Below are positions 15,142-33,125 of a stretch of DNA of 64,000 nucleotides, one piece after another; within the stretch, counting starts at the first letter, position 1, and each line of letters opens with the position of its first letter. This DNA is from an uncultured Actinomycetes bacterium (GTDB lineage: Bacteria > Actinomycetota > UBA4738 > JBBDTT01). A program made the translations under genes and the position numbers. The stretch lies in the NCBI GenBank assembly GCA_963742735.1, contig CAVUMN010000004.1, positions 640,001 through 704,000 on the forward strand. The letters run 5' to 3'. A model generated the notes under the pieces. The model was not told where the DNA came from. It was given only the letters and a program-made list of their open reading frames with translations, and ran no database searches.

Positions 15142-16146
15142 ATGAAGCGTTTCCTGGGTTGGAGTGTGGCCGTGCTGGCGCTGGCGGCCGTGGTGGGGCT
15201 GGTCGCCAAGGGCGGAGGCACGACCGACCAGGCCGCGAGCCCTGCGTACGCGCCGATGGAGGCGAGCGGCGGGCCCCAGGCGTCGGACGAGGCCACGGCT
15301 CGGAAGGCGGCCACCTACGGCGTGACGGAGAGCAACCAGCTGGGCGTGTCCGCCGGGGAACCCGCACCCGGGCCGGTCTTCGCGCCGGCCGGCGCCGACG
15401 GGGACAGCGTGGCATTCAGCGAGGAGTCCGGCGGCCTGGCCCTTCCCGAGATCGCCGAGCCCGGCGTCGACCCGAAGGTCATCAAGACGGCCTCGCTCGA
15501 GGTGGAGCTCGCCGACGGGACGTTCGACCGGTCGTTCCGCGACGCGTCGCTCGTGGCCAGCAGCCACGGCGGCTACATCCAGTCCTCCTCCACCAGCCGG
15601 TTCGACGAGGCGCGGAGCGCGTCGCTCGTCGTCCGGGTGCCGGCCTCCCGGTTCGACCAGGCGCTCGCGGCGTTCAGGGAGCTGGGAGACGTCGTCGCCG
15701 AGGACGCCTCGGGCCAGGACGTCAGCGCGCAGTTCGTCGATCTCCAGGCCCGCCTGCGGAACTGGGAGGCTCAGGAGTCGGTGCTGCTCCGGCTGATGTC
15801 CGAGGCCAACACCATCGACGAGAGCATCAAGGTCCAGCGCAACCTCTCGGATGTCCAGCTGAACATCGAGCGGCTCCGCGGGCAGCTGCGCCTGCTCCGC
15901 GACCAGACGGACCTGGGCACGATCGGGCTGACCCTCACCGAGGGCGACCAGTCCGCGCTGTCGGAGAAGCAGGAGGACGACTCGATCCTCGGCAAGGCCT
16001 GGCGGGACGCGGTCGACGGCTTCCAGAACGTGCTGGCCGCGACGGTGGTCGGCCTGGGCTACCTGGTCCCGATCGCCCTGCTGGTCCTGATCGTGGGCTT
16101 CGTGGTCCGGCGCACGCGGCGCGCGCCGGCCGCCGCGGAGTCGTAG
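15142..16146 (+). CDS. DUF4349 domain-containing membrane protein
   Basis: KVIKTASLEVE, GGYIQSS, LVVRVPA..FD, QDVSAQFVDLQARL, IERLRGQLR.L, and a C-terminal TM helix. Confidence 0.88.
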   Translation: MKRFLGWSVAVLALAAVVGLVAKGGGTTDQAASPAYAPMEASGGPQASDEATARKAATYGVTESNQLGVSAGEPAPGPVFAPAGADGDSVAFSEESGGLALPEIAEPGVDPKVIKTASLEVELADGTFDRSFRDASLVASSHGGYIQSSSTSRFDEARSASLVVRVPASRFDQALAAFRELGDVVAEDASGQDVSAQFVDLQARLRNWEAQESVLLRLMSEANTIDESIKVQRNLSDVQLNIERLRGQLRLLRDQTDLGTIGLTLTEGDQSALSEKQEDDSILGKAWRDAVDGFQNVLAATVVGLGYLVPIALLVLIVGFVVRRTRRAPAAAES

Positions 16147-16153
16147 GGGGGCG

Positions 16154-17185
16154 CTACTCGCCCTTCAGGGCGGGGAGGACCTCGGTCCCGAACAGCTGCA
16201 CGGCGTCCCGGGCGGTGTCGTCGTCCATGCCCGGGTAGTACAGCCGGACGATCAGGTGGAACTCGCGCCGGCCGGCGAACGCCTCGGCCACCGGCGCCAG
16301 GCCGGCAACGACGTCCTCCGGCGTGCCGTGGAGCGTGAGCCCTTTCAGCGTGTCCTCCGCGACCTGGGGGACGTCCAGCCCGTGGCCGGGCGTGTCCGAC
16401 CCCGCTCCCCACGCGGCGTACACGCCCAGCTGGTGGTTCGCGCCGTCGCGGACCTTCGCCCAGGCCTGCTCCGGGTCGCGGTCGACGAACGCGTTCTGCA
16501 GGAGCGCGAACCCGAGCGCCTCGGGGTCCTTGCCGGCCTCGCGGGCCCCCTCCTCGGCCCACCGAACCGCTTCCTTCGAGCCCTCGAGCGGGGAACGGCT
16601 GCGGATGTAGCCGTCGGCGACCCGGCCCGCGCGGCGGATCGTCTTCTCGTCGAAGCCCCCGAGGTAGATCGGGGGCCCGCCCTCCCGGGCCGGCGCGGGG
16701 GTGACCTTCACGTCCTCGTACCGGTGGACCTTCCCCTCGAACGAGAACCGCTCGCCGGTCCACGCGCGCCGGAGGATCTCGATCGGCTCCAGCGTCAGCG
16801 CGAGCCGCCGTCCCTCGGGGATGCCGAACATGCGGAACTCCTCCTCGCGCCACCCCCGGGCGAGCCCGAGGATCAGCCGTCCGTCGGAGAGGTTGTCCAC
16901 GACCGCGGCGTCCTCGGCCAGGCGCAGCGGGTCGTGCATCGGGGCCAGGACGACGCCGGTGCCGAGCGTGACGCGCTCGGTCACCGCGGCGATCGCGGCG
17001 AGCATGGGCAGCAGCGAGGGAAGGTAGCCGTCGGACGAGCCGTGGTGCTCGCTGACCCAGATCGAGTCGAACCCCAGGACCTCGGCCTCCCGGGAGAGCT
17101 CCAGGATCGTCCGGTACTCCTCGGCGAACGTCCGGCCGGAGCCAGGTGGAACCTGTCCGGTGAACAGCCCGAGCCCGATCTTCAC
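16154..17185 (-). CDS. LLM-class flavin-dependent oxidoreductase
   Basis: AE.LGFDSIWVSEHH, LGTGVVLAPMHDPLRLAEDAA..D.LS.GRL.LG and PPIYLGG. Confidence 0.92.
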   Translation of the reverse strand: MKIGLGLFTGQVPPGSGRTFAEEYRTILELSREAEVLGFDSIWVSEHHGSSDGYLPSLLPMLAAIAAVTERVTLGTGVVLAPMHDPLRLAEDAAVVDNLSDGRLILGLARGWREEEFRMFGIPEGRRLALTLEPIEILRRAWTGERFSFEGKVHRYEDVKVTPAPAREGGPPIYLGGFDEKTIRRAGRVADGYIRSRSPLEGSKEAVRWAEEGAREAGKDPEALGFALLQNAFVDRDPEQAWAKVRDGANHQLGVYAAWGAGSDTPGHGLDVPQVAEDTLKGLTLHGTPEDVVAGLAPVAEAFAGRREFHLIVRLYYPGMDDDTARDAVQLFGTEVLPALKGE

Positions 17186-17234
17186 GCCCACGACCGGAAA
17201 CGCTATACAAAAGGACAGGAGGAAGATTGCGGAC

Positions 17235-20200
17235 GTGAGCATCCCCGAGACCGCCACCGTCCTGTTCACCGACGTGGTCGGGTCGACCGACCTGGCGAAC
17301 CGCGTCGGCGACGCGGAGTGCCGGCGCCTGCTCGGGTCCCACGAGACCGTGATCCGCGAGGAGCTGGCCGCGCACGACGGCCGCGAGATCAAGACGATGG
17401 GCGACGGCTTCATGGTCTCGTTCCCGAAGCCCGAGGGCGGGCTGGCCTGTGCGGTGGCGGTCCAGCGCCGGCTGGCCGCGGAGGCCGAGGGCGTGAGCGT
17501 CCGTATGGGGCTGCACACGGGCGAGGTCACCGAGGAGCGGGGCGACCTGTTCGGCGTGGCCGTCAACGCCGCGGCCCGGGTCGCGGCGAAGGCGCGGGGC
17601 GGTCAGATCCTGGTGTCCGAGCCGCTGCTGGCCGCGCTCGACGGCCTGGAATCGGTGGACCGCGGACTGTTCTGGCTGAAGGGGTTCCCCGACCGGTGGC
17701 GCCTGTACGAGGTCCTGTGGCGGGAGGGGTCCGCGGGTGCCCAGGCCGCCGCCGGGAGCGATCGAACCCCCTTCGTCGCCCGCGACGACGAGCTGGCCGA
17801 CCTGCGCCGGGCGCTCGAGGCGGCCGCGGGTGAGCACGGCTCGCTCGTGCTGATCGGCGGCGAGCCGGGCGTCGGCAAGACGCGGCTGACCATGGAGCTG
17901 GCCGCCGAGGCCGACGCGATGGCGATGCGCGTCCTGACCGGCCACTGCGTCGAGCGAGAGGGAGCCGCCCCGTACATGCCGTGGGTGGAGGTGCTCGAGC
18001 AGGCCCTGGCCCGGGCGCAGAGCCCAGAGGCCTTCCGAGGGCTGCTCGGCGAGTCGGCCGGGGAGGTGGCCCGCATCGTCCCCGAGCTCCGGAGGGTGTT
18101 CGACGACATCCCCGCGCCGCTCGACCTGCCCCCGGAGCAGGAGCGGCGGTACCTGTTCAACTCCATCCGGGAGTTCATCGGGCGGGCGGCGGAGATCCGC
18201 CCGCTCCTGATCGTCCTGGACGACCTGCACTGGGCCGACGAGCCGACCCTGCTCCTGTTGGAGCACGTGGCCGAGGGTCTGGCCGGCGCGCCGGTGCTGG
18301 TGCTCGGCACGTACCGGGACGTGGAGCTCGAGGTGGGCCGTCCGCTGGCGCGCGCCATCGAGGACCTTCGCCGCCGCGGCCTCGCGCAGCGCCTGTCGCT
18401 CCGCCGGCTCGACGAGCGCGGCGTCGCCGACATGCTGCGCGGCCTGACCGGCCAGGATCCGCCCGCCGAGCTGGTCCGGGCGATCTACACCGAGAGCGAC
18501 GGCAACGCGTTCTTCGTCGAGGAGGTGTTCCACCACCTGATGGAGGAGGGCCGCCTGCTCGACGCGGCGGGCCGGTGGCGCACCGACGTCGCCGTAGCGG
18601 AGTTCGACGTGCCCGAGAGCGTGCGGCTGGTGATCGGCCGGCGGTTGGAGCGGGTCACCGAGGACGCCCGGAAGCTCCTGGCCGCGGCGGCGATCCTCGG
18701 CCGGGTGTTCGACGCGGCGGCGCTGGAGACCGTCGCCGGGGTGGACGAGGACCAACTGCTCGACGGGCTCGAGGAGGCCGAGCGCGCGCGGCTCGTCGCC
18801 GCCGTCGAGGGCCCGGGGGAGCGCTTCGAGTTCGCCCACGAGCTGATCCGCCAGACCCTCCTGGCCGAGGTGTCCACGCTCCGGCGCCAGCGGCTGCACC
18901 TTCGGGCCGCCGACGCGATCGAGGCGGGGGCCGAGGGACGACAGGAGGAGGTCGCGGCCGACCTCGCCTACCACCTGATGCAGGCGGGGGCGGGCGCGCC
19001 GGTCGAGCGAACGGCGAAGGCGTTGCACCTCGCCGGCACGCGCGCGCTCGAGGCGGTGGCCTTCGAGGGCGCCGTCGGCTACCTGGAGTCCGCGGCGTCG
19101 ATGCCGGGCGCGTTCGACGACCGAACCCGGGCGGAGCTGATGCACGGCCTGGGGCAGGCCTACGCGGGCGTCGGCCGGTGGGATGAGGCCCTCGAAGCTT
19201 GGGACCAGGCCCTCGACGGGTTCGAGCGGCTGAAGGACGAGGAGACGGTGGGCCGGATCGCCTACCCGATCTCCTACCAGCTGATCTGGGGCGCGAGGTT
19301 CGAGGACGCGTTGATGGCGGTGGGCCGCGGCCTCGGGGCCCTCGGCGATCGCGAGACCCTGGACCGGGTCCGGCTGCTCTCGAACGGTGCGCTGCTGTTC
19401 GGCGGCGGCGGGTACGCGGAGGCGTCGGAGCAGATGGCAGGCGATGCGCTCGCGATGGCCGAGCGACTCGGCGACGACCGGGTCCTGGGCGAGGTGCTCT
19501 CGACGCGGGCCATCGTTCGATGGCAGTTCTGCCGGTTCGCGGACACGGTCGAGCTCGGGCTGCGCGCCGCCGATCTGCTCCGCGCGGAGAACGCCCTCTG
19601 GGAGCTCGCCGCGAACCAGGGCTTCGTCGCCGTCGCCCTGGCGTGGTGCGGCCGCTTCGAGGAGACGCTCGAAGTGGCCGGCGAGGCGATCCGTCTGGGC
19701 GACCGCATCGGCCATCCGGGCGCGCACCTCACGGCGCATCGCGGCCGATTCAACGCCGAGTTCGTCGGCTCGGGCGACCTGGCCATCCTGGCCGCCGCGG
19801 CCGAGGAGGACCGCGACATCGCGACGGCCAACCAGCTTCCCTGGATCGCGCAGTCCTACGTGTGGATCGGCCTGGCCGCGTTCCTGCGCGGCGACTGGAG
19901 CCGCGCCCGCGAGTCGTTCGAGGAGGCCGTGCGCCGTGAACCTCCCGCCCCGCTGTTCACGGGGTGGGAGCGGGGCACGCTCATGTGGCTGCTGGCCCAT
20001 CTTGGCGACCAGGACGGCGCCCTCGAGCTGTGGTCGCGCGACGGGGTGGAGATTCCGGTCGAGGGAGAGGCCATCGGGCTCGGCGCCAGCGCGATGCTCC
20101 TGTTCGGTGTCGAGACGTTCGCGATCCTCGGCCGCCTCGAGGAGGCGGCGGCAGTGTACCCGGTGGTCCTCGCGCACTCGAAGGTTATCGACGCCCGGAT

Positions 20201-20495
20201 CTGGGATCTGGCTCCCACCAAGCGCATCGCGGCGGTGGCCGCGGCCTGCGCCGGTGACTTCGAGGCGGCGGAGCGGCTGTTCGATGCCGCCGAGGAGCAG
20301 GCGCGGGCCTGGCCCCACGTGATCGAGCGGGATGCCGAGGGGCCGCGGTGGCGGGCCTGGATGCTGCTCGAGCGGAACGGGCCCGGCGACCGGGAGCGCG
20401 CCGCGGAGCTCCTGACCGGCGCGATCGACCGGTATCGCGACCTCGGCATGCCGAGGCACGTCGAGCTGGCAGAGAGGATGCTGGCGAGCACATGA
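17235..20495 (+). CDS. Class III adenylate/guanylate cyclase-STAND ATPase-helical repeat protein, paralog 1 (1086 aa)
   Basis: FTDVVGST, KTMGDG, DLFG.AVN.AAR, LKG; Walker A GEPGVGKT; Walker B LDDLHWAD; GNAFF; F.HELIR; TPR-like C-terminal half. Confidence 0.9.
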   Translation: MSIPETATVLFTDVVGSTDLANRVGDAECRRLLGSHETVIREELAAHDGREIKTMGDGFMVSFPKPEGGLACAVAVQRRLAAEAEGVSVRMGLHTGEVTEERGDLFGVAVNAAARVAAKARGGQILVSEPLLAALDGLESVDRGLFWLKGFPDRWRLYEVLWREGSAGAQAAAGSDRTPFVARDDELADLRRALEAAAGEHGSLVLIGGEPGVGKTRLTMELAAEADAMAMRVLTGHCVEREGAAPYMPWVEVLEQALARAQSPEAFRGLLGESAGEVARIVPELRRVFDDIPAPLDLPPEQERRYLFNSIREFIGRAAEIRPLLIVLDDLHWADEPTLLLLEHVAEGLAGAPVLVLGTYRDVELEVGRPLARAIEDLRRRGLAQRLSLRRLDERGVADMLRGLTGQDPPAELVRAIYTESDGNAFFVEEVFHHLMEEGRLLDAAGRWRTDVAVAEFDVPESVRLVIGRRLERVTEDARKLLAAAAILGRVFDAAALETVAGVDEDQLLDGLEEAERARLVAAVEGPGERFEFAHELIRQTLLAEVSTLRRQRLHLRAADAIEAGAEGRQEEVAADLAYHLMQAGAGAPVERTAKALHLAGTRALEAVAFEGAVGYLESAASMPGAFDDRTRAELMHGLGQAYAGVGRWDEALEAWDQALDGFERLKDEETVGRIAYPISYQLIWGARFEDALMAVGRGLGALGDRETLDRVRLLSNGALLFGGGGYAEASEQMAGDALAMAERLGDDRVLGEVLSTRAIVRWQFCRFADTVELGLRAADLLRAENALWELAANQGFVAVALAWCGRFEETLEVAGEAIRLGDRIGHPGAHLTAHRGRFNAEFVGSGDLAILAAAAEEDRDIATANQLPWIAQSYVWIGLAAFLRGDWSRARESFEEAVRREPPAPLFTGWERGTLMWLLAHLGDQDGALELWSRDGVEIPVEGEAIGLGASAMLLFGVETFAILGRLEEAAAVYPVVLAHSKVIDARIWDLAPTKRIAAVAAACAGDFEAAERLFDAAEEQARAWPHVIERDAEGPRWRAWMLLERNGPGDRERAAELLTGAIDRYRDLGMPRHVELAERMLAST

Positions 20496-23400
20496 CCGAG
20501 AACGCCTCCGGGACGAAGACGATCCTGTTCACCGACGTCGAGGGATCGACCGGCCTCCGGACGCGCGTCGGGGACGACGCCGCCCATGCGGTCCTGCGGG
20601 AGCACGAGGAGCGCGTGCGCGAGCTGATCGCGAGCAACGGGGGCCGGGAGGTCAAGTCGCTCGGCGACGGCTTCATGGCCGCGTTCGTCTCGGCACGCTC
20701 GGCCGTCGACTGCGCGGTCGCCATCCAGCGCGCGTTCGAGGCCTTCGGCGAGGAGGGGCTGCGCGTGCGGGTCGGGGTCAACGCGGGGGACGTTCGCGAG
20801 GAGGCCGGGGACCTCTACGGCTCGGCGGTGAACGCGGCGGCCCGGATCGCCGCCGCCGCGAACGGGCGGCAGATCCTGGTGTCCGGCGTCGTCAAGGATC
20901 TGGCCGGCACGATGCCGGGCGTGCAGTTCGTGGACCGGGGCCTCTACTGGCTGAAGGGGTTCCCGGAGAAGTGGCGGCTGCACGAGGTGCAGTGGTCGGC
21001 GGGGCGGGCTCGGACCGCGTCGCCGCTGGGGCCGGCGGAGCGGACGCCGCTGGCCGGCCGCGAGGAGGAGATGGCGGACCTGCGGCGCCTGCTCGACCAG
21101 GCGCTGGCCGGCCGCGGAGCCCTCGTCCTGATCGGGGGGGAGCCCGGCCTGGGCAAGACCCGGCTCGCCGAGGAGATCCTCGAGGAGGCCTCGGGCCGGG
21201 GGTTCCTGGCGCTCACCGGCCGGTGCTACGAGATGGAGGGCGCTCCTCCGTACATGCCGCTCGTGGAGATCCTGCACACGGCGGCGAAGGTGGTCCCGCC
21301 CGAGGTGTTCCGGGAGGCGCTGGGCGACGCGGCGGGGGAGGTGGCCCGTCTGCTCCCGGAGCTCGGCCGGCTCTTCGCGGACATCCCCGCCCCGGTCGAC
21401 ATGCCGCCCGAGCAGGCCCGCCGGTACCTGCTGAACAGCCTCCGGGACTTCTTCGACCGCACCAGCCGCCGCCGCCCGCTGGTCCTGTTGCTCGACGACC
21501 TCCACTGGGCGGACGAGTCCTCGCTGTTGCTGCTGCAGCACACCGCCGAGCGCCTGGCCGACATGCCGGCCCTGATCATCGGAACGTACCGGGACGTCGA
21601 GCTGGACGTTGGACGCCCGCTGGCGATGAGCCTGGACTGGCTGCTTCGTCACCGGCTGGCCCACCGCGTGGCCCTGCACCGCCTGGGCGAGGACGGCATC
21701 CGCGACATGCTTACGGGCCTGGCCGGTCAGGACCCGCCGGACCCCCTGGTCAAGGTCATCTACTCCGAGACCGAGGGCAACCCGTTCTTCGTGGAGGAGG
21801 TGTTCCGACACCTCTCCGAGGAGGGCCGCCTGCTGAACGAGGAGGGCGGGTTCCGTGCCGACCTCATCATCGACGAGCTCGACGTGCCGGAGGGCGTCCG
21901 CCTGGTCATCGGCCGGCGCCTGCAGCGGCTCGAGGAGGACACGCGAAAGGTCCTCTCGGCGGCCGCGGTCCTCGGGCGGAGCTTCGAGTACGAGCTCGTG
22001 CGGGCGATGGACGGGTTGAGCGACGACCAGGTGCTCGACGCCGTGGAGGAGGCGGAGCGGGCCCGGCTGATCGTCCCCGCGGGGACCGGCTCCCGGTACT
22101 TCTTCGGACACGAGCTGATCCGGCAGACCTTGCTGTCCGGCCTGTCGCTGCCCCGGCGCCAGCGGCTGCACCTGCGGGCCGCCGAGGCGATCGAGAGCAC
22201 CCATTTCGTGGCGGGGGACGCCGCCGCCTCGGACCTGGCCCATCACCTGTTCCAGGCCGGGGCCGCCGCCGACCCGGACAAGACCGTGCGGGCGCTCGCC
22301 CTGGCCGGAGAGGTCGCCATGCGGACCATGGCGTTCGACGACGCCCTCCGGCACTTCGACAACGCGCTCGCCCTGGAGCCGGAGGACCCCCGGACCCGGG
22401 CCGGCCTGCTGCACGGACGGGCGCGAGCCCTGCGCAGCCACGGGCGGTGGGACGAGGCCCTCGATGCGTGGCGCGAGGCCCTCTCGCTCGCGGAGGCCGT
22501 CGGCGATCACGAGGCCACGGGCCAGATGGCCTGGGAGCTCGCCCATCAGCTCGCCTGGGCCACGCGCTGGCAGGAGGCCGCGGAGACGGCCGCGCGAGGG
22601 CTCGCCGGCCTGGGGGACGCCGAGACCGCGGAGCGCGCCCAGCTCACCCTGCTGTGTGGGATCGCCTTCGCGATGGGGGGCAACGGCGCCTTCGGGTGGC
22701 AGATGATCGAGGAGGGGGCGGCCCTCGCCGAGCGGCTGGGCGAGGGCGAGCTGATCGGGTATGCCGGCTACTGCCAGGCGATCTACCACTGGGCGTACTG
22801 GAACGCCGACGCGTGCGTCGAGGCCGGTCGCCGGGCGATCGAGCCGCTGCGCGCGGCGGGCGACCTATGGGACCTCGCCGCGCTTCTGGGCTTCATCGAA
22901 TTCATGCTGTTCGCCCAGGCCCGCACCGACGAGGCGCTGCCCGTCGCCCGAGAGAGCCTCGAGCTCTCCCAACGGCTGGGACATCGTGGAGCCGAGCTGA
23001 TCCCCGGACGAACGATCGCCTACCTGGAGCTGTTCTTCGACGGTCGATGGGAGGAGTTCGACGCCTATCTCGATCGCGACATCGAGATCTGCCGCACGAT
23101 CGAGTCGCCGTTCATCCACGACGCCTACTCGTGGAAGGGGATGGTCGCGCACGCGCGGGGGGACTGGGCGGAGGCCCTCGCGTGGTACGAGCGCGGGGCC
23201 GAGGAGGCCGTGCCGGGCCTGTGGGCGCCGATCCATCCCATGTTCCTCGCCCGTCACCTGGCCCGGATGGGCGACGGGGACCGGGCGCGCGGACTGATCG
23301 AGGAGCACCTGCCGTTCCTGCCTCGCCCGTCCGAGGGGCCCGTCTCGCTTGGATCGTGGGTGACCCTCTCGCTCGTGGTGGACGCCTTCGTCGAGCTCGG

Positions 23401-23770
23401 CGAGGACGAGCGGGCGGCGGAGCTGTATCCGCTGACCCTCGACTACCTGGCCGCCGGAAGCGTCGGCCAGCCCTACGAGCCTCTCCCGGTCGAATTCCTC
23501 GCTGGGCTCGCCGCCGCCGCGGGCGGCCGGTGGGACGACGCCGAGGCCCACTACGACCGGGCCCTCGAGGGGGCCGCGGCGTACGGAAACCGCGTCGCGG
23601 ACCCGGACATCCGCTCCCGGCTTGCCGCCACGCTGCTGGGTCGGAACGGGCCCGGCGATCGGGAGCGCGCCGTGGAGGTCCTCGGCGAAGCGATCGACCG
23701 CTATCGCGACCTCGGCATGCCCAAGCACGCGGAGCGCGCGGAGGGCATGCTTCAGCGAGCCGAGCCATGA
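20492..23770 (+). CDS. Cyclase-STAND ATPase-helical repeat protein, paralog 2 (1092 aa)
   Basis: ATGA overlap with paralog 1; FTDVEGST, KSLGDG, DLYG.AVN.AAR, LKG; GEPGLGKT; LDDLHWAD; GNPFF. Confidence 0.9.
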   Translation: MTENASGTKTILFTDVEGSTGLRTRVGDDAAHAVLREHEERVRELIASNGGREVKSLGDGFMAAFVSARSAVDCAVAIQRAFEAFGEEGLRVRVGVNAGDVREEAGDLYGSAVNAAARIAAAANGRQILVSGVVKDLAGTMPGVQFVDRGLYWLKGFPEKWRLHEVQWSAGRARTASPLGPAERTPLAGREEEMADLRRLLDQALAGRGALVLIGGEPGLGKTRLAEEILEEASGRGFLALTGRCYEMEGAPPYMPLVEILHTAAKVVPPEVFREALGDAAGEVARLLPELGRLFADIPAPVDMPPEQARRYLLNSLRDFFDRTSRRRPLVLLLDDLHWADESSLLLLQHTAERLADMPALIIGTYRDVELDVGRPLAMSLDWLLRHRLAHRVALHRLGEDGIRDMLTGLAGQDPPDPLVKVIYSETEGNPFFVEEVFRHLSEEGRLLNEEGGFRADLIIDELDVPEGVRLVIGRRLQRLEEDTRKVLSAAAVLGRSFEYELVRAMDGLSDDQVLDAVEEAERARLIVPAGTGSRYFFGHELIRQTLLSGLSLPRRQRLHLRAAEAIESTHFVAGDAAASDLAHHLFQAGAAADPDKTVRALALAGEVAMRTMAFDDALRHFDNALALEPEDPRTRAGLLHGRARALRSHGRWDEALDAWREALSLAEAVGDHEATGQMAWELAHQLAWATRWQEAAETAARGLAGLGDAETAERAQLTLLCGIAFAMGGNGAFGWQMIEEGAALAERLGEGELIGYAGYCQAIYHWAYWNADACVEAGRRAIEPLRAAGDLWDLAALLGFIEFMLFAQARTDEALPVARESLELSQRLGHRGAELIPGRTIAYLELFFDGRWEEFDAYLDRDIEICRTIESPFIHDAYSWKGMVAHARGDWAEALAWYERGAEEAVPGLWAPIHPMFLARHLARMGDGDRARGLIEEHLPFLPRPSEGPVSLGSWVTLSLVVDAFVELGEDERAAELYPLTLDYLAAGSVGQPYEPLPVEFLAGLAAAAGGRWDDAEAHYDRALEGAAAYGNRVADPDIRSRLAATLLGRNGPGDRERAVEVLGEAIDRYRDLGMPKHAERAEGMLQRAEP

Positions 23771-24939
23771 CCGAGACCGCGACCATCCTGTTCACGCACG
23801 TCGAGGGGGCCACCGCGCTGCGCGCGCGCGCCGGCGACCAGGCCACCGATCAGGCGCTGGCCGCCCACGAGGCGATCGTGCGCGAGGCCATCGAGCGCCA
23901 CGGCGGGCGCGACGCCGTCTCGTTCGAGGAGGGGTTCACGGCGGCGTTCGTGACCCCTCGGGCCGCGGTCGACTGCGCGGCGGCGATCCAGCGGGCGATG
24001 GACGCGTACGCCGACGAGGGGCTGCGGATCCGTGCCGGCGTCCACCACGGACCCGTCGAGGAGGGACCCGAGGGAGCCGTTGGCCCCGGCGTCACCGGCG
24101 CGGCCGCGATCGTGGCCGCCGCCCGGGGCCGTCAGATCCTGGTCTCCGACGAGGTTCGCGAGCTGGCCGGCACGATGCCCGGCCTCCAGTTCGTTGACCG
24201 CGGTGAGTTCCGGTTCTCGGCAGACGGCGAGCCGACCCGGGTCCACGAGGTCCTGTGGTCGATCCGCCGGGAGCGGACGGCCTCGCCGATCCCGCAGGCC
24301 ACCACGCCGTTCGTCGGCCGCGAGGCCGAGCGGGACGAGCTTCGGGAGGTCCTCGACGCGGCGCTGGCCGGCCGCGGCTCGCTGGTGATGATCTCGGGCG
24401 ACGCGGGGGTGGGGAAGTCCCGCCTGGCCGAGGACCTGGCCGAGGAGGCGTCGCGCCGTGGGTTCCTGGCCCTCTCCGGTCGCTGCGAGGACCTGGAGGA
24501 CCCTCCCGCGTTCATGCCGCTGCTCGAGATCCTGCGGACCGCCATGAGCCTGGTGCCGCAGCAGGTGTTCCGCGAGTCGATGGGGGCCGCATTCTCGGGG
24601 ATCGCCAGCCTGCTCCCGGAGCTCGCCGAGGAGCCGCCGTCCGGCGCGGCGCCCGATCGGGAGGCGCTCCTGGACGCATGCCGGGACTTCCTGGAGCGCA
24701 CGAGCCGGCGGCGTCCGACCCTGTTGATCCTGGAGCACCTCCAGTGGGCCGACGCGGAGAGCGTCGCCCTCATCAGACACTCGGCCGACCGGCTCGCCCA
24801 GCTCCCGGCGGTGCTGGTGGGACTGTACCGCCCGGGCGGCCTGACCGAACGGCCCCTGGGTGCGGCCCTCGACGGGCTGCTGTCCCTGCCCGTCGTTCGG
24901 AGCCTTGAGCTTCAACGGTCGGTCCCCGGAACACCGTGA
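23767..24939 (+). CDS. Degenerate cyclase plus NTPase domain only, paralog 3 (390 aa)
   Basis: ATGA overlap upstream and GTGA downstream. Cyclase motifs altered (FTHVEGAT, VSFEEG, VTGAAAI); Walker A GDAGVGKS intact; Walker B reads LEHLQWAD. Confidence 0.85.
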   Translation: MTETATILFTHVEGATALRARAGDQATDQALAAHEAIVREAIERHGGRDAVSFEEGFTAAFVTPRAAVDCAAAIQRAMDAYADEGLRIRAGVHHGPVEEGPEGAVGPGVTGAAAIVAAARGRQILVSDEVRELAGTMPGLQFVDRGEFRFSADGEPTRVHEVLWSIRRERTASPIPQATTPFVGREAERDELREVLDAALAGRGSLVMISGDAGVGKSRLAEDLAEEASRRGFLALSGRCEDLEDPPAFMPLLEILRTAMSLVPQQVFRESMGAAFSGIASLLPELAEEPPSGAAPDREALLDACRDFLERTSRRRPTLLILEHLQWADAESVALIRHSADRLAQLPAVLVGLYRPGGLTERPLGAALDGLLSLPVVRSLELQRSVPGTP

Positions 24940-27900
24940 GCCGCCCCGAACCCGCGAATGGGGGCGAGACCACCAACACGACGATCCTGTTCACCGACGT
25001 CGAGGGATCCACGGACCTGCGCACCCGTCTGGGCGACGAGGCCGCCAATCGCGTCCTGGCCGACTGCGAGCGCAGCGTTCGGGACGCCGTCGAGGCGAAC
25101 GGCGGTGAGGTCGTGAAACAGCTCGGAGACGGCGTCATGGCCACGTTCCAGTCGGCGCGCGCCGCGGTCCTGGCCGCCGTCGATGTGCAGGCGCGGACCG
25201 CCCGGGACGGCCCGCGGGTCCGCGTCGGCGTGCACTTCGGCGAGGTGGCGCGGGAGGGCGGCGACCTGCAGGGCGCGGCGGTCCACGCGGCGGCGCGCAT
25301 CATGGCGAGCGCCGCGGGCGGCCAGGTCCTGATCTCCGAGCGTGCCCGGGACATGGCCGGCCTCCTGCCGGAGGGCACGCGCCTGATCGACCGCGGCCTG
25401 TTCTGGCTGAAGGGGTTCCCCGAGCGGTGGCGCCTGGTCGAGGTCCTCGGAGAGTCGGCGGACGAGGGTGTGGTTGCGTCTGCCGGCGGCGCGCCGTACG
25501 TCGGCCGCGACGACGAGCTCGCGGACCTCCGCCGGGCCCTGGAGGCCGCGGACGGGGGGCACGGGTCGCTGGTGATGATCGGCGGCGAGCCCGGCGTCGG
25601 GAAGACCCGGCTGGCGGAGGAGACGGCCGCGTTCGCCCGCCGCCGAGGCATGCTGGTGTTCACCGGCCGGTGCTCCGACATGGAGGGGGCACCCCCGTAC
25701 CTGCCCTTCGTCGAGATCCTCGAGGCGGTCGCCCGGTTCGTTCCCCTCGACGCGCTGCGCGCCGCGCTCGGGGAGACCGCGGGGGACGTCGCCCGGGTCG
25801 TGCCCGAACTCCGCCGTCTGCTCCCGGACCTCCCGCCGGCGGCCGACCTTCCGCCGGAGCAGGAACGCCGCTACCTCCTGAACGCGGTCCGCGACGTGCT
25901 CGCCCGCTCGGCCCGGATGCACGCCCTGGTCCTGATCCTCGACGACCTGCACTGGGCCGACGAGCCGTCGCTGCTGCTGCTCGAGCATCTCGCCGAGCTG
26001 CTTCCCGAGCTCCCGTGCCTGGTCGTGGGGACCTATCGCGACGTCGAGCTCGAGGTGGCACGCCCCCTGGCCCGGACCCTCGAGTCCCTCCTGCGCCGCA
26101 AGCTCGCCGCGCGGGTGTCGCTCCACCGGCTCTCGGAGGACGCGGTGCGCGAGCTCCTTGCCGCCCACGCCGGCCAGCACCCGCCGGAGGGGCTCGTCAA
26201 GGTGGTGTTCGCGGAGACCGAGGGCAACCCGTTTTTCGTCGAGGAGGTGTTCCGCCACCTCGCCGAGGAGGGCCGGTTGTTCGACGAGTCCGGCCGGTTC
26301 CGCACGGACCTGGAGATCTCCGAGGTGGACGTGCCCGAGGGCGTCCGGCTGGTGATCGGGCGGCGTCTCGACAGGCTGTCGGAGGCCGCTCGAGAGGCCC
26401 TCACCGCCGGCGCGGTCCTTGGCCGGGTGTTCCCGTTCGCGCTACTGGCCACGGTCGCGGAGCGCGAGAACGAGGAGCTGCTCGACGCTATCGACGAGGC
26501 GGAGCGGGCGAAGCTCCTGGCCCCGGCCGGCCACGGTCGCGACGAGCGGTACGCGTTCTCGCACGAGCTCGTGCGACAGACCCTGCTCGCCGGGGTGACC
26601 TCCGCGCGCCGGCGCCGGCTCCACCTGCGCGCCGCCGAGGCGATCGAGGCCGCTCACGGCGAGTCGCCCGAACACGCCGCCGACGTCGCGCATCACCTGC
26701 TCACGGCGGGCGCGACGGCGGACCCCGCGCGGACGGTTCGGTGGCTACGGATGGCCGGGGAGCGCGCCCTGGAGGCGGCGGCGTTCGAGGACGCGGCCCG
26801 GCACCTGGAGGCAGCCCTCGAGCTCGAGACGGGGCTCGACGACGCCGCCGAGGCCGACCTGCGGTTCTCGCTCGGCATCGCCCAGCGGGGAGCCGGCCGG
26901 TGGGAGGACGCCCTGGCCACGTGGATGGACACGCTCGGCCGGTTCCGGGCCCTCGGCGAGCGCGAGCGCCTGGCCGAGGTTGCGTGGCACGTGGGCTACC
27001 AGCTGCTGTGGGCCGGCCGCGAGGAGGTCCTGGCTCAGGTCCTGACCGAGGCGCTCGTGGACCTGGAGGGCAGCGACTCGGCCGGCCACGCGCGGCTCCT
27101 CCTCGGCGCGGCCGTGGGGTTTGCCACCGTCGCCCAGCTCGCCGGTTCGGAGCTGATGCTGGGCAAGGCCGAGGCGATGGCGGGAACCCTGAACGACGAC
27201 GTGCTGAACCGCGACCTCGACCAGGCCCGCGCGGTCGTTCACTGGACCTTTCCGGGGCTCGCCGAATGCATCACCGCGGCCCGCCGCGCCGAGGTCCGGA
27301 TGGAGGCGGCGGGAGCTCTGTGGGATCTGGCCAACATCCGGAGCTTCATCGTCGCCGCCCAGATCCTTTCCGGCGAGGTCGAGGAGGCGATCGCCCTCGG
27401 CGGGCCGACGCTGGAGCTCGCCGACCGGCTCGGGCACGTCGGCGCACACATCTACGTCAGCCGCGCGCTCGATCCGACTCGGGCGCAGACGAGTGGCGAC
27501 GCGAAGGGACTCCTGGTCTCGATGGAGTCCGAAGCCACGCTGGCCCACGACGCCGGGATCGTGTGGGCCGAGTCGAACGCGGTGTGGCACTGCGCCATCG
27601 CCGAGCTCTGGCTGGGCCACTGGGACGACGCGCTGGCCAGGGGACGCGACGGGATGACCCGGAAGATCCCCGCGGGCTACGAGGGCTGGGGCGACGGGGT
27701 GCTCGCCGTGATCCTCGCCCTCGCCGGCCCGCGCGAGGAGGCCGTCGCGTGGATCGAGGCACGGCTCGACAGGGTCCCGACGCCTGGAGAACGGGGGACG
27801 ATCGGAGCGTGGATGCTGGCGCTGTTCCTGACGGAGGCGCTCGCCGTAGTCGGGAACTGGGACCGGCTCGCGTCCCTCGCGCCCGTCATGGAGGGTCTCC

Positions 27901-28196
27901 CGGCCACCGGCATCGCCTATCGGGTCATCGACACGCGCTCGGCGAAGGTCTCCCTCGGCCTGGTCGCGGCCGCGCGCGGAGACGCGGAGGGCGCGCGGGC
28001 GGCCTTCGAGGAGACCGTCGCCGACGCCGATCGCCGGGGGTTCGTGATCGAGGGAGCCGAGACGCGGCGTCTGTACGCGCTCGCCCTGGCCCGTCTGGGC
28101 ATCGAGCCCGAACGTGCGGCCGCCCTGCGCGCCGAGGCGGCGGTGCGCTACCGCGAGCTCGGCATGGACCGCCACGCGGCCCTGGTCTCTGGCTGA
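24936..28196 (+). CDS. Cyclase-STAND ATPase-helical repeat protein, paralog 4 (1086 aa)
   Basis: FTDVEGST, KQLGDG, DLQG.AVH.AAR, LKG; GEPGVGKT; LDDLHWAD; GNPFF. Confidence 0.9.
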   Translation: MSRPEPANGGETTNTTILFTDVEGSTDLRTRLGDEAANRVLADCERSVRDAVEANGGEVVKQLGDGVMATFQSARAAVLAAVDVQARTARDGPRVRVGVHFGEVAREGGDLQGAAVHAAARIMASAAGGQVLISERARDMAGLLPEGTRLIDRGLFWLKGFPERWRLVEVLGESADEGVVASAGGAPYVGRDDELADLRRALEAADGGHGSLVMIGGEPGVGKTRLAEETAAFARRRGMLVFTGRCSDMEGAPPYLPFVEILEAVARFVPLDALRAALGETAGDVARVVPELRRLLPDLPPAADLPPEQERRYLLNAVRDVLARSARMHALVLILDDLHWADEPSLLLLEHLAELLPELPCLVVGTYRDVELEVARPLARTLESLLRRKLAARVSLHRLSEDAVRELLAAHAGQHPPEGLVKVVFAETEGNPFFVEEVFRHLAEEGRLFDESGRFRTDLEISEVDVPEGVRLVIGRRLDRLSEAAREALTAGAVLGRVFPFALLATVAERENEELLDAIDEAERAKLLAPAGHGRDERYAFSHELVRQTLLAGVTSARRRRLHLRAAEAIEAAHGESPEHAADVAHHLLTAGATADPARTVRWLRMAGERALEAAAFEDAARHLEAALELETGLDDAAEADLRFSLGIAQRGAGRWEDALATWMDTLGRFRALGERERLAEVAWHVGYQLLWAGREEVLAQVLTEALVDLEGSDSAGHARLLLGAAVGFATVAQLAGSELMLGKAEAMAGTLNDDVLNRDLDQARAVVHWTFPGLAECITAARRAEVRMEAAGALWDLANIRSFIVAAQILSGEVEEAIALGGPTLELADRLGHVGAHIYVSRALDPTRAQTSGDAKGLLVSMESEATLAHDAGIVWAESNAVWHCAIAELWLGHWDDALARGRDGMTRKIPAGYEGWGDGVLAVILALAGPREEAVAWIEARLDRVPTPGERGTIGAWMLALFLTEALAVVGNWDRLASLAPVMEGLPATGIAYRVIDTRSAKVSLGLVAAARGDAEGARAAFEETVADADRRGFVIEGAETRRLYALALARLGIEPERAAALRAEAAVRYRELGMDRHAALVSG

Positions 28197-28200
28197 CCCC

Positions 28201-29037
28201 CTAGGCCAGCGCCGGGGCGATCTCCCGGCCGAACGCCGCGACCGCGTCCAGGTCTCGGTGCTCCAGATGCTGGAGGTACGCGCGGGTCGCCCCGGCGTCG
28301 CGATACCGGCCCAGCCGGTCGATCAGCTCCTGCCCCCGCTCGGGGACGCGCCCCATCCAGGTCAGGCGGACCTCCGACGGCCTCCGACGGTGGCGCTCGC
28401 AGGCCTCGGCCAGCATCGGCCCGACCGGCGCGAGCTCCTCGGGTTCCACGCCCAAGACGTTCAGCTCGTCCCCCCACCGCGCCGCGAGGTCGGCGGCGCG
28501 CTTGCCGCCCCGGCTGCCCACGAGCAGGGGCGGGTGCGGCGACTGCGCGGGCTTGTGCAACCCGGGGGAATCCTCGAGCCGGTAGTGCTCGCCCTCGTGG
28601 GTGAAGGTGTCCTGCGTCCAGGTCTCGTGGACGATCCGCAGCTGCTCGGCGAGCATCGCCATGCGGTCCCCGAGCGGGGGGAACGGGAAGCCGTAGGTCC
28701 GGTGCTCCTCCTCGTTCCAGCCGGCGCCCATACCGAGCTCCACCCGCCCGCCGCTGACGTGGTCGGCGGTGACGACGGTCTTCGCCAGGTGCGACGGGTG
28801 GCGAAAGGTCACCGGCGAGACCAGCGTGCCGAGCCGGATCCGCTCGGTCCGCGCCCCGAGCGCGGACACGACCGTCCACGCGTCGAACGATCCCTGCTTC
28901 GGTCCGCGGTGGAACGAGAGGTAGTGGTCGGAGGTGAACAGGCCCGTCAGGCCGTTCTCCTCGCAGGCGCCGGCAAGCGCGAGCCAGTCGTCCCAGGTCA
29001 CGCCCTCCTGGCCCTCGATCATCAGACAGATCTCCAT
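28201..29037 (-). CDS. LLM-class (probably F420-dependent) oxidoreductase
   Basis: MEICLMIEGQEGVTW, LFTSDHY, IRLGTLVSPVTFRHP and GRVELGMGAGW.E.EH. Confidence 0.9.
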   Translation of the reverse strand: MEICLMIEGQEGVTWDDWLALAGACEENGLTGLFTSDHYLSFHRGPKQGSFDAWTVVSALGARTERIRLGTLVSPVTFRHPSHLAKTVVTADHVSGGRVELGMGAGWNEEEHRTYGFPFPPLGDRMAMLAEQLRIVHETWTQDTFTHEGEHYRLEDSPGLHKPAQSPHPPLLVGSRGGKRAADLAARWGDELNVLGVEPEELAPVGPMLAEACERHRRRPSEVRLTWMGRVPERGQELIDRLGRYRDAGATRAYLQHLEHRDLDAVAAFGREIAPALA

Positions 29038-29073
29038 GGGGATAGATTGTCCTCCCCACCTATGGAGGTGCGC

Positions 29074-29553
29074 ATGCCGGTCTGGCCGAGCGAGGAGTGG
29101 AACGCCGAGTACGTCAAGCTCATCAACGCCTCGAAGGAGTACCAGGAGGCCGCCCACGACTGGGAGGGTTCGGTCGTGTACGGGATCGAGGCCGACCCCG
29201 AGAAGGGCCTGGCCGAGAACGTCTACGCCTTCTACGACCTGTGGCACGGCCAGTGCCGCGAGGGCAAGCAGGTCACGGCGGAGGAGGCCGCGCAGGCCGA
29301 CTTCGTGATCACCGCGCCGTACGCGATCTGGAAGCAGATCTCGACGAAGGAGCTCGACCCGGTGAAGGCCCTCATGCAGGGCCGGCTGAAGATGAAGGGC
29401 GACCTGGCGAAGGCCATGAAGTACACCAAGGCCACGATCGTCCTCAACGACCTGGCCACCCAGGTCGCCGACACCGAGTACCTGGACGAGCTCCCGAAGG
29501 AACGCCTCCAGGAGCTCAAGGACCAGGGCCAGCCCGTCGCCGTCCCCGACTAG
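29074..29553 (+). CDS. SCP2 sterol/lipid-binding domain protein
   Basis: PSEEW, DLWHG.CR, ADFVITAPY..W and LDPVKALMQGRLKMKGD; SD GGAGG. Confidence 0.88.
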   Translation: MPVWPSEEWNAEYVKLINASKEYQEAAHDWEGSVVYGIEADPEKGLAENVYAFYDLWHGQCREGKQVTAEEAAQADFVITAPYAIWKQISTKELDPVKALMQGRLKMKGDLAKAMKYTKATIVLNDLATQVADTEYLDELPKERLQELKDQGQPVAVPD

Positions 29554-29556
29554 GCC

Positions 29557-30543
29557 GTGGCGGGAGCGGGGAAGCTGACGGTCGCGGTCACCGGGCCGAC
29601 GGGCGACATCGGCAAGGCCGCGGTCCGCGCGCTGGAACGCTCCCGCGAGGTCGGTGAGATCCGGGGCATGGCCCGCCGGCCGTTCTCGGCCGCCGCCGAG
29701 GGGTGGAAGAAGACCGAGTACGTGCAGGGCGACGTCCTGGACGCGAAGGCCGTGGCCCGTCTGGTGAAGGGGGCGGACGTCGTGGTCCACCTCGCTTTCA
29801 TCATCATGGGCTCGGACGAGGAGAGCCGCCGGATCAACCTCCGCGGCACCCGCAACGTCTTCAAGGCCGCGGTCGCCGCCGGGGCCAAGCGGATCGTGTA
29901 CACCTCCTCGGTCGCGGCGTACGGCTTCCGCGACGACCACCCCCCCTCGCTCACCGAGGACCAGCCGGCCCGGGGGAGCGACCACCCGTACTCCGCGCAG
30001 AAGCACGAGCTGGAGGCCGTGGTCGAGAAGCTGACGGCCGGCACCAAGACCAAGGCCTACGTGTTCCGACCGTGCGTCGTCGCCGGGCCGACCGCGCTGG
30101 CGATGGTCGAGGAGGTCCCGGCCGCGATCCGCAAGCTCTCCAGGATCCGCGGGATCCAGCCGGTGGTCCCGGACCCGGGAGTCCCGCTGCAGATCGTGCA
30201 CGAGGACGACGTCGCCACCGCGATCCGGGCGGCCGTTCTCGGACGCGGCGAGCCCGGCGTCTACAACCTGGCCGGCGAGGGAACCGTCTCGCTCTCGGAG
30301 GTGGCCCGGGCCTACGGGTGGCGCTCGGTCGGCGTGCCGAGGGCAACCCTCAAGGTCGCCGCCGACGTGGTGGCCGCCCTCCCGTTCCTGCCCTCCAAGA
30401 CGCGATGGGTCGAGGCGCTTCGCTCACCGATGCTGATGGACACATCGAAGGCGAAGCGGGAGCTGCGGTGGCGGCCGAAGCACGACGCCCGCTCCACGCT
30501 GCACCAGACGGTGGCCGCGGCGCGGGAGCGGGGCCTGCTCTAG
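29557..30543 (+). CDS. NAD-dependent epimerase/dehydratase (extended SDR)
   Basis: VAVTGPTGDIG, VVHLAF, IN..GT.NV, YTSS.AAYG and YSAQK. Confidence 0.9.
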   Translation: MAGAGKLTVAVTGPTGDIGKAAVRALERSREVGEIRGMARRPFSAAAEGWKKTEYVQGDVLDAKAVARLVKGADVVVHLAFIIMGSDEESRRINLRGTRNVFKAAVAAGAKRIVYTSSVAAYGFRDDHPPSLTEDQPARGSDHPYSAQKHELEAVVEKLTAGTKTKAYVFRPCVVAGPTALAMVEEVPAAIRKLSRIRGIQPVVPDPGVPLQIVHEDDVATAIRAAVLGRGEPGVYNLAGEGTVSLSEVARAYGWRSVGVPRATLKVAADVVAALPFLPSKTRWVEALRSPMLMDTSKAKRELRWRPKHDARSTLHQTVAAARERGLL

Positions 30544-32186: not shown

Positions 32187-33125
32187 TTAGGCCACCGCCG
32201 GCCCGACCTCGTTACCGAGCCACTCTACGGTCGGGAGCAGCTCGTCCATCGTCAGGGCGAGGTCGATGGACAGGAAGTCGGCTTCGGCCTTCGCGTAGGC
32301 GGCGATCTGCTCGAGCATCTCCGGCCGCGACCCGCGGATCGCCGGGCGATCGGGGGTGAAGTCGGCGGCGCCCTCCGGCGCCAGACCGACGCGGACGGCG
32401 ATCATGATCGCCGCCGGGTCGCGTCCGGCCACGCTCGCCTGGGAGCGGATCCGGTCGGCGCCCTCCCGGACCTCCTCGGGCGTCAGGTCGAACGCCAGCC
32501 AGCCGTCGGCGATCGTCGCCGTCCGCCGCAGGGCGGCCGGGGAGTTCCCGCCGATCAGGATGGGCGGCCCGCCGGGCGTGAACGGCCGCGTCGCGAGCTG
32601 GACGTCGGTGAAGTTGACGAACTCGCCCTCGAACGAGGTCGGCTCGACGTTCGTCCACAGATGACGCATCGCGGCGAGGTACTCGTCGGTCATCCGCCCG
32701 CGCGTCTTCGGGTTCACGCCGAGGGCCTCGAACTCCTCGACCAACCACCCCGACCCGATCCCGAGGAGCACCCGGCCCTCGGAGAGGCGGTCGATCGTGG
32801 CGATCTCGTTCGCCAGGACCAGCGGGTTCCGGTACGGAAGGACCAGGATGCTCGAGCCGACCCTGATCCGCTCGGTGGCGCCGGAGACGAAGGACATGAC
32901 CGCCACCGGGTCGAGCCAGTCGATGCCCGGCTCGTAGGCCCACCACAGGCCCTTGTCCGACTGGGGGAACGGGTAGGTGCTCCCGGTGCGTTCCTTGGGG
33001 AGCACGACGTGGTCGGCCGTCCACACGCTGTGCAATCCGGCCTCCTCGGCCGCGCGAGCGACCTGGATGACGAACTCGCGGAACGCGACCGGCCCGATCG
33101 TGGGCAAGGAGATGCCGATCTCCAT
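32187..33125 (-). CDS. LLM-class (probably F420-dependent) oxidoreductase
   Basis: AEEAG.HSVWTADHVVLP, LVLPYRNP, GIGSGWL.EEF.ALG and PPILIGG.S.AA.RR. Confidence 0.9.
   Translation of the reverse strand: MEIGISLPTIGPVAFREFVIQVARAAEEAGLHSVWTADHVVLPKERTGSTYPFPQSDKGLWWAYEPGIDWLDPVAVMSFVSGATERIRVGSSILVLPYRNPLVLANEIATIDRLSEGRVLLGIGSGWLVEEFEALGVNPKTRGRMTDEYLAAMRHLWTNVEPTSFEGEFVNFTDVQLATRPFTPGGPPILIGGNSPAALRRTATIADGWLAFDLTPEEVREGADRIRSQASVAGRDPAAIMIAVRVGLAPEGAADFTPDRPAIRGSRPEMLEQIAAYAKAEADFLSIDLALTMDELLPTVEWLGNEVGPAVA

Follow-up and report, generated by a model that had tools for sequence, protein, structure and literature searches.

A window of 64,000 nucleotides from an uncultured Actinomycetes bacterium (GenBank assembly GCA_963742735.1, contig CAVUMN010000004.1, positions 640,001 to 704,000) harbours an array of four tandem genes, g1 to g4, coding for proteins with an N-terminal cyclase homology domain (CHD) followed by a nucleotide-binding domain (NBD) of the AAA_16/STAND type. 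The third gene, g3 (23767..24939, + strand; 390 amino acids, P0001), codes for a pseudo-cyclase that ends directly behind the NBD, and we are highly confident that it represents a real, selected and non-catalytic gene. At about even odds, its product is a non-catalytic partner which would join the full-length cyclase g2 (20492..23770, +; 1092 amino acids), its apparent parent, and lower or gate the output of cyclic AMP (cAMP).

The gene status of g3 is indicated by its open frame, its Pfam domains, its base composition and its orthologues. Translation of 23767-24939 yields 390 residues with zero internal stops. Pfam assigns residues 3-153 to Guanylate_cyc with a weak score (27.6 bits at a cut-off of 21.9) and residues 181-350 to AAA_16 (107 bits, E 1.7e-30), and the third-position GC content (GC3) is 0.92 all along the gene, with 0.93-0.94 in the neighbours. 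The ATG of g3 lies within the TGA of g2 (ATGA, 23767..23770, +), and its own TGA (24937-24939) shares bases with the GTG of g4 (GTGA, 24936..24939, +); the g1/g2 junction is likewise ATGA, so that all three junctions of the array are 4-base start/stop overlaps. An earlier note, made from the sequence alone, had described g3 as an intact frame coupled at both ends, which is correct, and the motifs quoted there were all recovered (FTHVEG, VSFEEG, GAVG, VTGAAA, GVHHG, GRQILVS, FVDRG, GDAGVGKS and LLILEH, with LKG missing).

Loss of catalytic residues

The CHD of g3 (residues 1-166; 23767..24264, +) matches the cyclase domains of Ma1120 and Rv1900c in fold and is catalytically dead, H11, V51, E55, G103, A114 and S151 standing in the places of D, K, D, D, R and K, respectively. 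The assignment of the catalytic columns is established knowledge for class III cyclases; their identities were anchored by an alignment (HMMER) to Ma1120, whose 'KDA to EGY' mutant marks the specificity positions, and positions were counted in an alignment of g3, five short relatives (see below) and 99 long homologues (105 rows). The first metal-binding Asp (D11) is conserved in 97 of the 99 long homologues and the second (D55) in all of them; g3 carries H and E at these positions (HHHLHD and EEEEEQ across the six short proteins). The substrate Lys (K51) and the substrate Asp (D103), each found in 88/99 long homologues, are replaced by V and G in g3 (VVVVE- and GGGG-- in the six short proteins), the transition-state Arg (R114; 98/99) by A and the phosphate Lys of the LKG motif (K151; 90/99) by S. 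The second metal Asp, the substrate Lys, the Arg and the LKG Lys are missing from all six short proteins, and Asp103 is also lost in all six. D11, D55 and R114 are jointly present in 96/99 long homologues and in 0/6 short proteins.

Of 35 CHD columns conserved to at least 85 % in the long homologues, 22 are retained in g3 and 13 are lost. All six catalytic or substrate columns are among the 13 (hypergeometric p = 0.0011), in agreement with the earlier view that loss is concentrated on catalytic residues. The broader statement that every catalytic position had been changed holds for these six columns; it does not extend to the 'transition-state Asn', a column that varies among the long homologues (N in 47 of the 99, H in 13, V in 11, D in 9, S in 7 and A in 5). 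Since N occupies this column in only 47/99, the Thr of g3 is not diagnostic, and the alignment suggests that the cyclase-STAND family studied here evidently does not need a transition-state Asn. The paralog g4 (24936-28196) has His at this column (motif VHAAAR), as has the g2 orthologue P0008. In summary, g3 is a member of the class III cyclase fold family (Pfam PF00211) and possesses none of the features of a cyclase enzyme, i.e. neither the metal Asps nor the Lys/Asp pair, the Arg and the phosphate Lys.

Short-protein family and purifying selection

A protein search against 5.8 billion clusters revealed five more full-length short proteins with about 50-89 % identity to g3 and lengths of 383-403 amino acids: P0002 (89 %, 390 amino acids), P0003 (86 %, 390), P0004 (69 %, 403), P0007 (59 %, 384) and P0009 (about 50-51 %, 383). 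The fragments P0005 and P0006 were returned as further members by the same search. The six full-length proteins differ by in-frame insertions and deletions only, and their C-termini coincide within a few residues, after the last strand of the NBD. The earlier note had named orthologues with the same substitutions and truncation point as a check; the five full-length relatives, with their shared end and the same dead sites, are of this kind.

When 1.84 billion representatives were searched with a profile, two clusters of the short family scored 745 and 614 bits, and the next matches were long forms with at most 351 bits, save for giant multi-NBD proteins with summed matches. The latter (P0034, P0050 and P0086; 3024-3257 amino acids) have at most one cyclase domain, with two or three AAA_16 domains behind it, and could be either true multi-NBD fusions or high-GC read-through gene calls over tandem arrays. 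An alignment search of 90 % clusters found no additional short-family member, and the ESM Atlas contained generic clusters of cyclase and AAA_16 proteins only, many of them labelled as fragments. Scanning with the short-family alignment yielded a single distant long relative (L010, 36 %) in genome contigs and a single locus, L011, in metagenome contigs. Four proteins of about 390 amino acids (P0011, P0082, P0098 and P0135) were rejected as family members; they break off within the NBD and seem to be fragments cut short at contig ends.

The ratio of non-synonymous to synonymous substitution rates (dN/dS) was determined with the NG86 and LWL85 methods for the genome pair formed by the window and L011. 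Across g3 codons 1-105, 27 codons differ synonymously and 9 non-synonymously, corresponding to a dN of 0.0445, a dS of 0.468 and a dN/dS of 0.095 according to NG86, and to a dN/dS of 0.086 according to LWL85. The bootstrap 95 % range is 0.036-0.197, and none of 500 replicates reached 1; purifying selection, the second check named in the earlier note, is thus evident over these codons. Two of the outcomes which that note had listed as refuting its reading, a lack of orthologues and a dN/dS near 1, did not occur. For g2 of the same pair, dN/dS is 0.081 in codons 1-120, 0.111 in the CHD, 0.120 in the NBD and 0.208 in the whole gene. Over its first 105 codons, the dead CHD of g3 is constrained as strongly as the live CHD of g2, and the CHD identities of this pair are 90.3 % (g3) and 92.1 % (g2). 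In the closest g3 pairs the dead CHD is more conserved than the NBD (95.2 % vs 85.3 % and 90.3 % vs 83.8 %). The deeper pair P0004/P0008 shows 69.5 % identity for g3 and 86.7 % for g2.

Scaled to the mean of the short clade, conservation within this clade is lowest at residues 51-60 (0.85), 101-110 (0.44) and 151-160 (0.68), which correspond to the former active-site loops, and peaks at residues 61-90, 231-260 and 311-320. Selection is relaxed specifically at the active-site loops and retained on the fold core; because of this distribution, the fold is taken to be kept for a purpose other than catalysis. Several derived residues are kept in the clade, namely T63 in 6/6 members and R122, E55 and A114 in 5/6 each. 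Altogether, g3 has an unbroken frame, conserved orthologues and a dN/dS far from 1, and shows none of the marks of a pseudogene.

Nucleotide-binding domain, linker and predicted structure

The AAA_16/STAND-type NBD comprises residues 181-384 (24307..24918, +) and is supported by Pfam and by structural matches obtained with VIA to Orc1/Cdc6 (2qby, Z 14.4), a STAND-TPR protein (6mfv, Z 12.2) and Avs3 (Z 11.9). Its Walker A motif GDAGVGKS (residues 211-218; 24397..24420, +) is intact, with G211, G214, G216 and K217 invariant in 105/105 aligned sequences. The Walker B motif reads LLILEH (residues 319-324; 24721..24738, +), ending in E323-H324. The earlier note had regarded the change from DD to EH as a departure from the canonical motif. 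This is appropriate for the second acid, which is Asp in 99/99 long homologues and H, H, H, H, D and A in the six short proteins, and not for the first, where Glu is common (29/99 long homologues). The sensor-like Arg355 is intact in g3 and retained by 6/6 short proteins, and 27 of the 34 conserved NBD columns are retained in g3. Where the second Walker B acid is missing, nucleotide binding is usually unimpaired and hydrolysis slowed. ATP binding by the P-loop domain of g3 is probably preserved, given the intact Walker A and sensor-like Arg; its ATP hydrolysis is probably poor, given the His in place of the second Walker B acid.

The C-terminus of g3 is located 6 residues past the last strand of the NBD, as had been noted before, and no TPR match was obtained by Pfam; the helical, winged-helix and C-terminal repeat sensor modules are absent. 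Hence, g3 contains a P-loop NBD with Walker A, and neither a two-acid Walker B nor the helical, winged-helix and sensor parts of a STAND protein.

The AlphaFold2 model of g3, built from the 105-row alignment, has a mean predicted local distance difference test (pLDDT) value of 91.9 and displays two compact domains with a linker of low confidence between them. Foldseek aligned domain 1 to Ma1120 (5d0e_B) with a template modelling (TM) score of 0.92 and a root-mean-square deviation (rmsd) of 1.8 over 165 columns at 34 % identity, while VIA matched it to Rv1900c (1ybt_A, Z 23.6) and to the eukaryotic-type cyclase structures 1cs4 (Z 20.9) and 3uvj (Z 19.9). A sequence search of the PDB with g3 retrieved cyclase domains only (best solved relative at E 3e-24) and no match for the NBD at E <= 0.001.

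The inter-domain linker (residues 167-178; 24265..24300, +) is predicted to be disordered, with pLDDT below 50. At its start, a motif W-S-I-R-R-x-R-T/S-x-S-P (residues 164-174; 24256-24288) was observed, in which S165, I166, R167, R168, R170 and S173 are invariant in 6/6 short proteins and which lies where the model is disordered (pLDDT about 43). Judging from its conservation, this motif could be a docking or modification site.

Origin from the g2 lineage

g3 shares 53-54 % identity with g2, 41 % with g4 and 37 % with g1, and the database search detected no long protein above 52 % identity to g3, the nearest being the g2 of the window itself. A maximum likelihood tree (quick search, 28 rows, first 430-460 residues of the long forms) with support from the Shimodaira-Hasegawa approximate likelihood ratio test (SH-aLRT) groups the six short proteins in one clade (SH-aLRT 100) with a long stem (0.39), sister to the group of g2 orthologues (SH-aLRT 97); P0022 branches outside both. 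Identities and tree agree with the derivation from paralog 2, i.e. g2, put forward earlier. According to the tree, g3 appears to have arisen once by duplication of the g2 lineage, and the truncation as well as most catalytic losses would have occurred once, on the stem of the short clade. Since g3 proteins cluster with g3 proteins and g2 proteins with g2 proteins, recent gene conversion between g2 and g3 seems unlikely.

The metagenome locus L011 (1-5854) contains genes for a DUF4349 protein, a luciferase-like monooxygenase (minus strand) and a g2 orthologue identical to P0018, followed by the start of a g3 orthologue, whose 105 codons are identical to the start of P0003. The ATGA overlap between g2 and g3 is kept there (5851-5854), although g2 of the window and of L011 are only 86 % identical. 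Three further g2/g3 pairs appear to share a contig. In the window, an additional full-length gene, g1, is located between the monooxygenase gene and g2, which L011 does not possess; g1 was either gained in the lineage of the window or lost in that of L011.

Proposed role and rival explanations

Class III cyclases work only as dimers, and their active sites are composite: one subunit contributes the metal Asps and the other the Lys, Asp and Arg. STAND NTPases signal via ATP-dependent oligomerisation that gathers their effector domains. A decoy or inhibitor mechanism is suggested here by analogy to the working of these dimers and oligomers. In this scheme, g3 would be made from the same operon as g2, probably translationally coupled via the ATGA overlap, and would join g2 through CHD-CHD pairing, NBD-NBD contacts, or both. 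Because the class III site spans the dimer interface and g3 is devoid of both residue sets, a g2:g3 pair would have no complete cyclase site. Consequently, g3 would reduce the amount of cAMP produced by the g2 complex or impose a threshold on it, while being blind to the ligand of g2.

For this role as a non-catalytic partner that joins g2 and lowers or gates its output we estimate a probability of about 0.5. That g3 acts through g2 or its paralogs at all is, from its sequence and gene context, an evenly balanced proposition, and the assumption of an inhibitory effect is tentative. The most specific version, possible but rather doubtful, is a natural dominant-negative subunit of a STAND-cyclase complex: sensor-less, ATP-locked, dead and produced in a fixed ratio to its parent, g3 would cap or poison the oligomer and thereby set the ligand threshold for cAMP formation. 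A complex prediction for the CHDs of g2 (residues 1-175) and g3 (residues 1-166), with alignments for each and no controls run, gave a score of 0.03 (mark, 0.32), which counts neither for nor against an association of the two.

Several observations weigh against a role of g3 as partner of g2. P0009 is the only short protein that has the first metal Asp. In P0007 and P0009, in-frame deletions of 10-15 residues (around g3 residues 96-110) remove the former substrate-Asp hairpin, which may weaken canonical pairing in these two proteins if the hairpin makes dimer contacts; the substrate-Asp loop thus appears dispensable for the role of the short family. The NBD, for which the window and L011 share 83.8 % identity in g3 vs 92.6 % in g2, evolves about 2 times faster in g3, and the C-terminal 40 residues of the short proteins are poorly conserved. 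The dN/dS estimate covers one genome pair and the first 105 of 390 g3 codons. The family is tiny, comprising 8 sequence clusters (6 full-length, 2 fragments), and searches of 40 relatives and of 293 other genomes of the order recovered no short orthologue, the best matches being long forms with at most 44 % identity; the unpublished genomes G014, G030 and G059 are part of these counts. In the only genome of the same genus (61 % complete), there was no match at E <= 1e-40. As the family is so small and no member was recovered from the 293 other genomes of the order, a g3-type gene does not generally accompany these cyclases.

Among the rival explanations, two concern the status of the gene itself. 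A truncated duplicate nearing its loss, with a frame that is open only since stops are rare at 73 % GC, would fit the long spurious open frames that are frequent in the window, where the frame of g3 itself is open from 20971 onwards, the rarity of the family and its roughly twofold faster evolution relative to g2. This is nevertheless very improbable, as decay is contradicted by the shared in-frame short orthologues and by the dN/dS of 0.095 with 0/500 bootstraps at or above 1; six full-length members, diverged to 51 % identity, have in-frame indels only and a common end point, GC3 is 0.92 throughout, and the model folds confidently. The dismissal of random decay in the earlier note is therefore upheld. 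Equally improbable is a g3 that is still an enzyme, in which a pocket of His11, Glu54 and Glu55 would bind a metal and catalyse a cyclase-like or other nucleotidyl reaction. His and two Glu do occupy the former metal-Asp sites in the three closest members, and Asp11 is retained in P0009; however, the H/E/E set varies across the clade (L/G/E, H/G/E, D/Q/Q), Lys51, Asp103, Arg114 and Lys151 are lost in six out of six members, the loop at position 103 is deleted in two, and conservation is lowest exactly at the active-site loops.

The other two accept g3 as a functional gene. Its pseudo-CHD could bind a ligand or another protein and be switched by the ATP-binding domain, the target not being the paralogous cyclases and the place in the operon being a legacy of duplication. 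The long stem (0.39) followed by purifying selection fits such a neofunctionalisation, as do the derived residues conserved in the clade, the conservation of the linker motif despite its predicted disorder, and the existence of solved non-catalytic cyclase-fold proteins (6yii, Z 14.8; 7sua, Z 14.0). We consider this independent function unlikely, since the overlap of g2 and g3 is kept in a relative with only 86 % identity in g2, both genes seem to lie together on three further contigs, and the loss of phosphate- and metal-binding residues makes a nucleotide in the old pocket improbable. Alternatively, g3 could be a positive partner, whose sensor-less, slowly hydrolysing NBD, held in an ATP state competent for assembly, seeds or stabilises g2 oligomers and sensitises signalling, the dead CHD serving as spacer or docking module. 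The intact Walker A, Arg355 in 6/6 short proteins and the replacement of the second Walker B acid in 5/6 are compatible with this, g3 lacks the modules by which STAND proteins are kept closed, and the evidence from operon coupling and selection applies equally to this and to the gating role. The higher conservation of the dead CHD in the closest pairs, on the other hand, is left unexplained and a g2:g3 CHD pair would still be without a complete active site; we rate a sensitising g3 as quite improbable.

Gene array and genomic setting

The window has a G+C content of 73 % and derives from a genome of 3.08 Mb in 5 contigs with an estimated completeness of 88.9 %. g2 is identical to the database protein P0017; for g1 (17160..20495, +; up to 1111 amino acids) and g2, Pfam detected Guanylate_cyc, AAA_16 and TPR each, and for g4 (24936..28196, +; 1086 amino acids) Guanylate_cyc and AAA_16, with no TPR reported. 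The true start of g1 is probably later than 17160, near residue 26, because its best homologue P0083 (82 %) aligns only from this residue onwards and because a minus-strand monooxygenase frame overlaps 17160-17566. A promoter/terminator scan of 16000-29500 yielded 0 promoter-like sites and 1 terminator-like site, below shuffled counts.

The array is flanked by metabolic genes (luciferase-like monooxygenases, DUF4349, SCP2, epimerase, amidohydrolase, amidase), and mobile or defence genes were not among them. Three genes for luciferase-like monooxygenases are located around the array, all on the minus strand (16154-17566, 28201-30201 and 32187-33125). No family of the PADLOC defence models matched g3 at E <= 1e-5; g1, g2 and g4 gave only weak PycC matches (23-31 bits), which lie in the cyclase domain. 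In the whole 3.08 Mb genome, 36 matches to the cyclase and/or AAA_16 domains of g3 were counted, many of them in frames of 850-1900 amino acids, which represents a large cyclase-STAND expansion for so small a genome.

Among the sequencing runs searched, no RNA run with the locus turned up; the DNA run X1 contained 0.16 of the sampled words, and two runs from the same study were also found. The reads gave only short identical fragments, from X1, and pieces with conserved motifs that belong to other organisms, providing no usable polymorphism and no bridging contig.

Comparison with known systems

High-GC soil bacteria are rich in large cyclase-STAND-TPR proteins; to our knowledge, the switching on and the restraint of these proteins are largely unstudied. 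g3 is homologous to the full-length CHD-AAA_16-TPR cyclases, represented by g2 (P0017), over all of its 390 residues and agrees with them in domain order, operon and Walker A. It differs from g2 by the absence of the catalytic and substrate residues, by the His in Walker B and by the absence of the helical, winged-helix and TPR part. The full-length type presumably corresponds to Rv0386 of Mycobacterium tuberculosis. The closest solved structures are the cyclase domains of Ma1120 (M. avium) and Rv1900c (M. tuberculosis), which have the same fold as the CHD of g3 and are active, possessing the Asp pair, Lys/Asp and Arg where H, V, E, G and A are aligned in g3.

A bacterial cyclase-fold protein from Pseudomonas aeruginosa (6yii), compared here by its entry title as a cyclase-like ATP-binding protein, resembles the CHD of g3 in structure (Z 14.8, rmsd 2.7, 153 residues), but is only 15 % identical and has no fused STAND NBD; it is not known to have arisen from an active cyclase by tandem duplication and truncation. 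7sua is likewise a non-catalytic cyclase-fold protein by its entry title. In pseudo-symmetric heterodimers, such as the C1/C2 domains of mammalian adenylyl cyclase and the alpha/beta subunits of soluble guanylate cyclase, an incomplete CHD pairs with a complementary one and one site works. These halves each keep one residue set, whereas g3 has lost both, so that no site is possible with g3. The literature searched contained no account of a conserved, sensor-less and fully dead CHD-NBD copy coupled to an active parent, many subscription papers and supplements being beyond the search.

A selected, dead and sensor-less copy that overlaps with its active parent offers a two-gene test of whether output relies on N-terminal cyclase pairing in an ATP-driven oligomer, and g3 would be a clear-cut bacterial example of a pseudoenzyme formed by tandem duplication, truncation and targeted catalytic loss. 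The same route is amply documented among immune decoys of eukaryotes, such as the CARD-only and PYD-only proteins beside caspase-1 and the truncated helper NLR NRG1C, for which interference was shown experimentally. Like these, g3 is a tandem duplicate next to its parent, retaining the assembly modules without sensor or output; unlike these, there is neither homology nor common effector chemistry, and interference by g3 is inferred. Should g3 indeed be a dominant-negative subunit, it would represent a bacterial counterpart of CARD-only and PYD-only decoys and truncated NLRs, and would provide direct evidence for an activation of these cyclases through proximity-induced pairing of the N-terminal domains.

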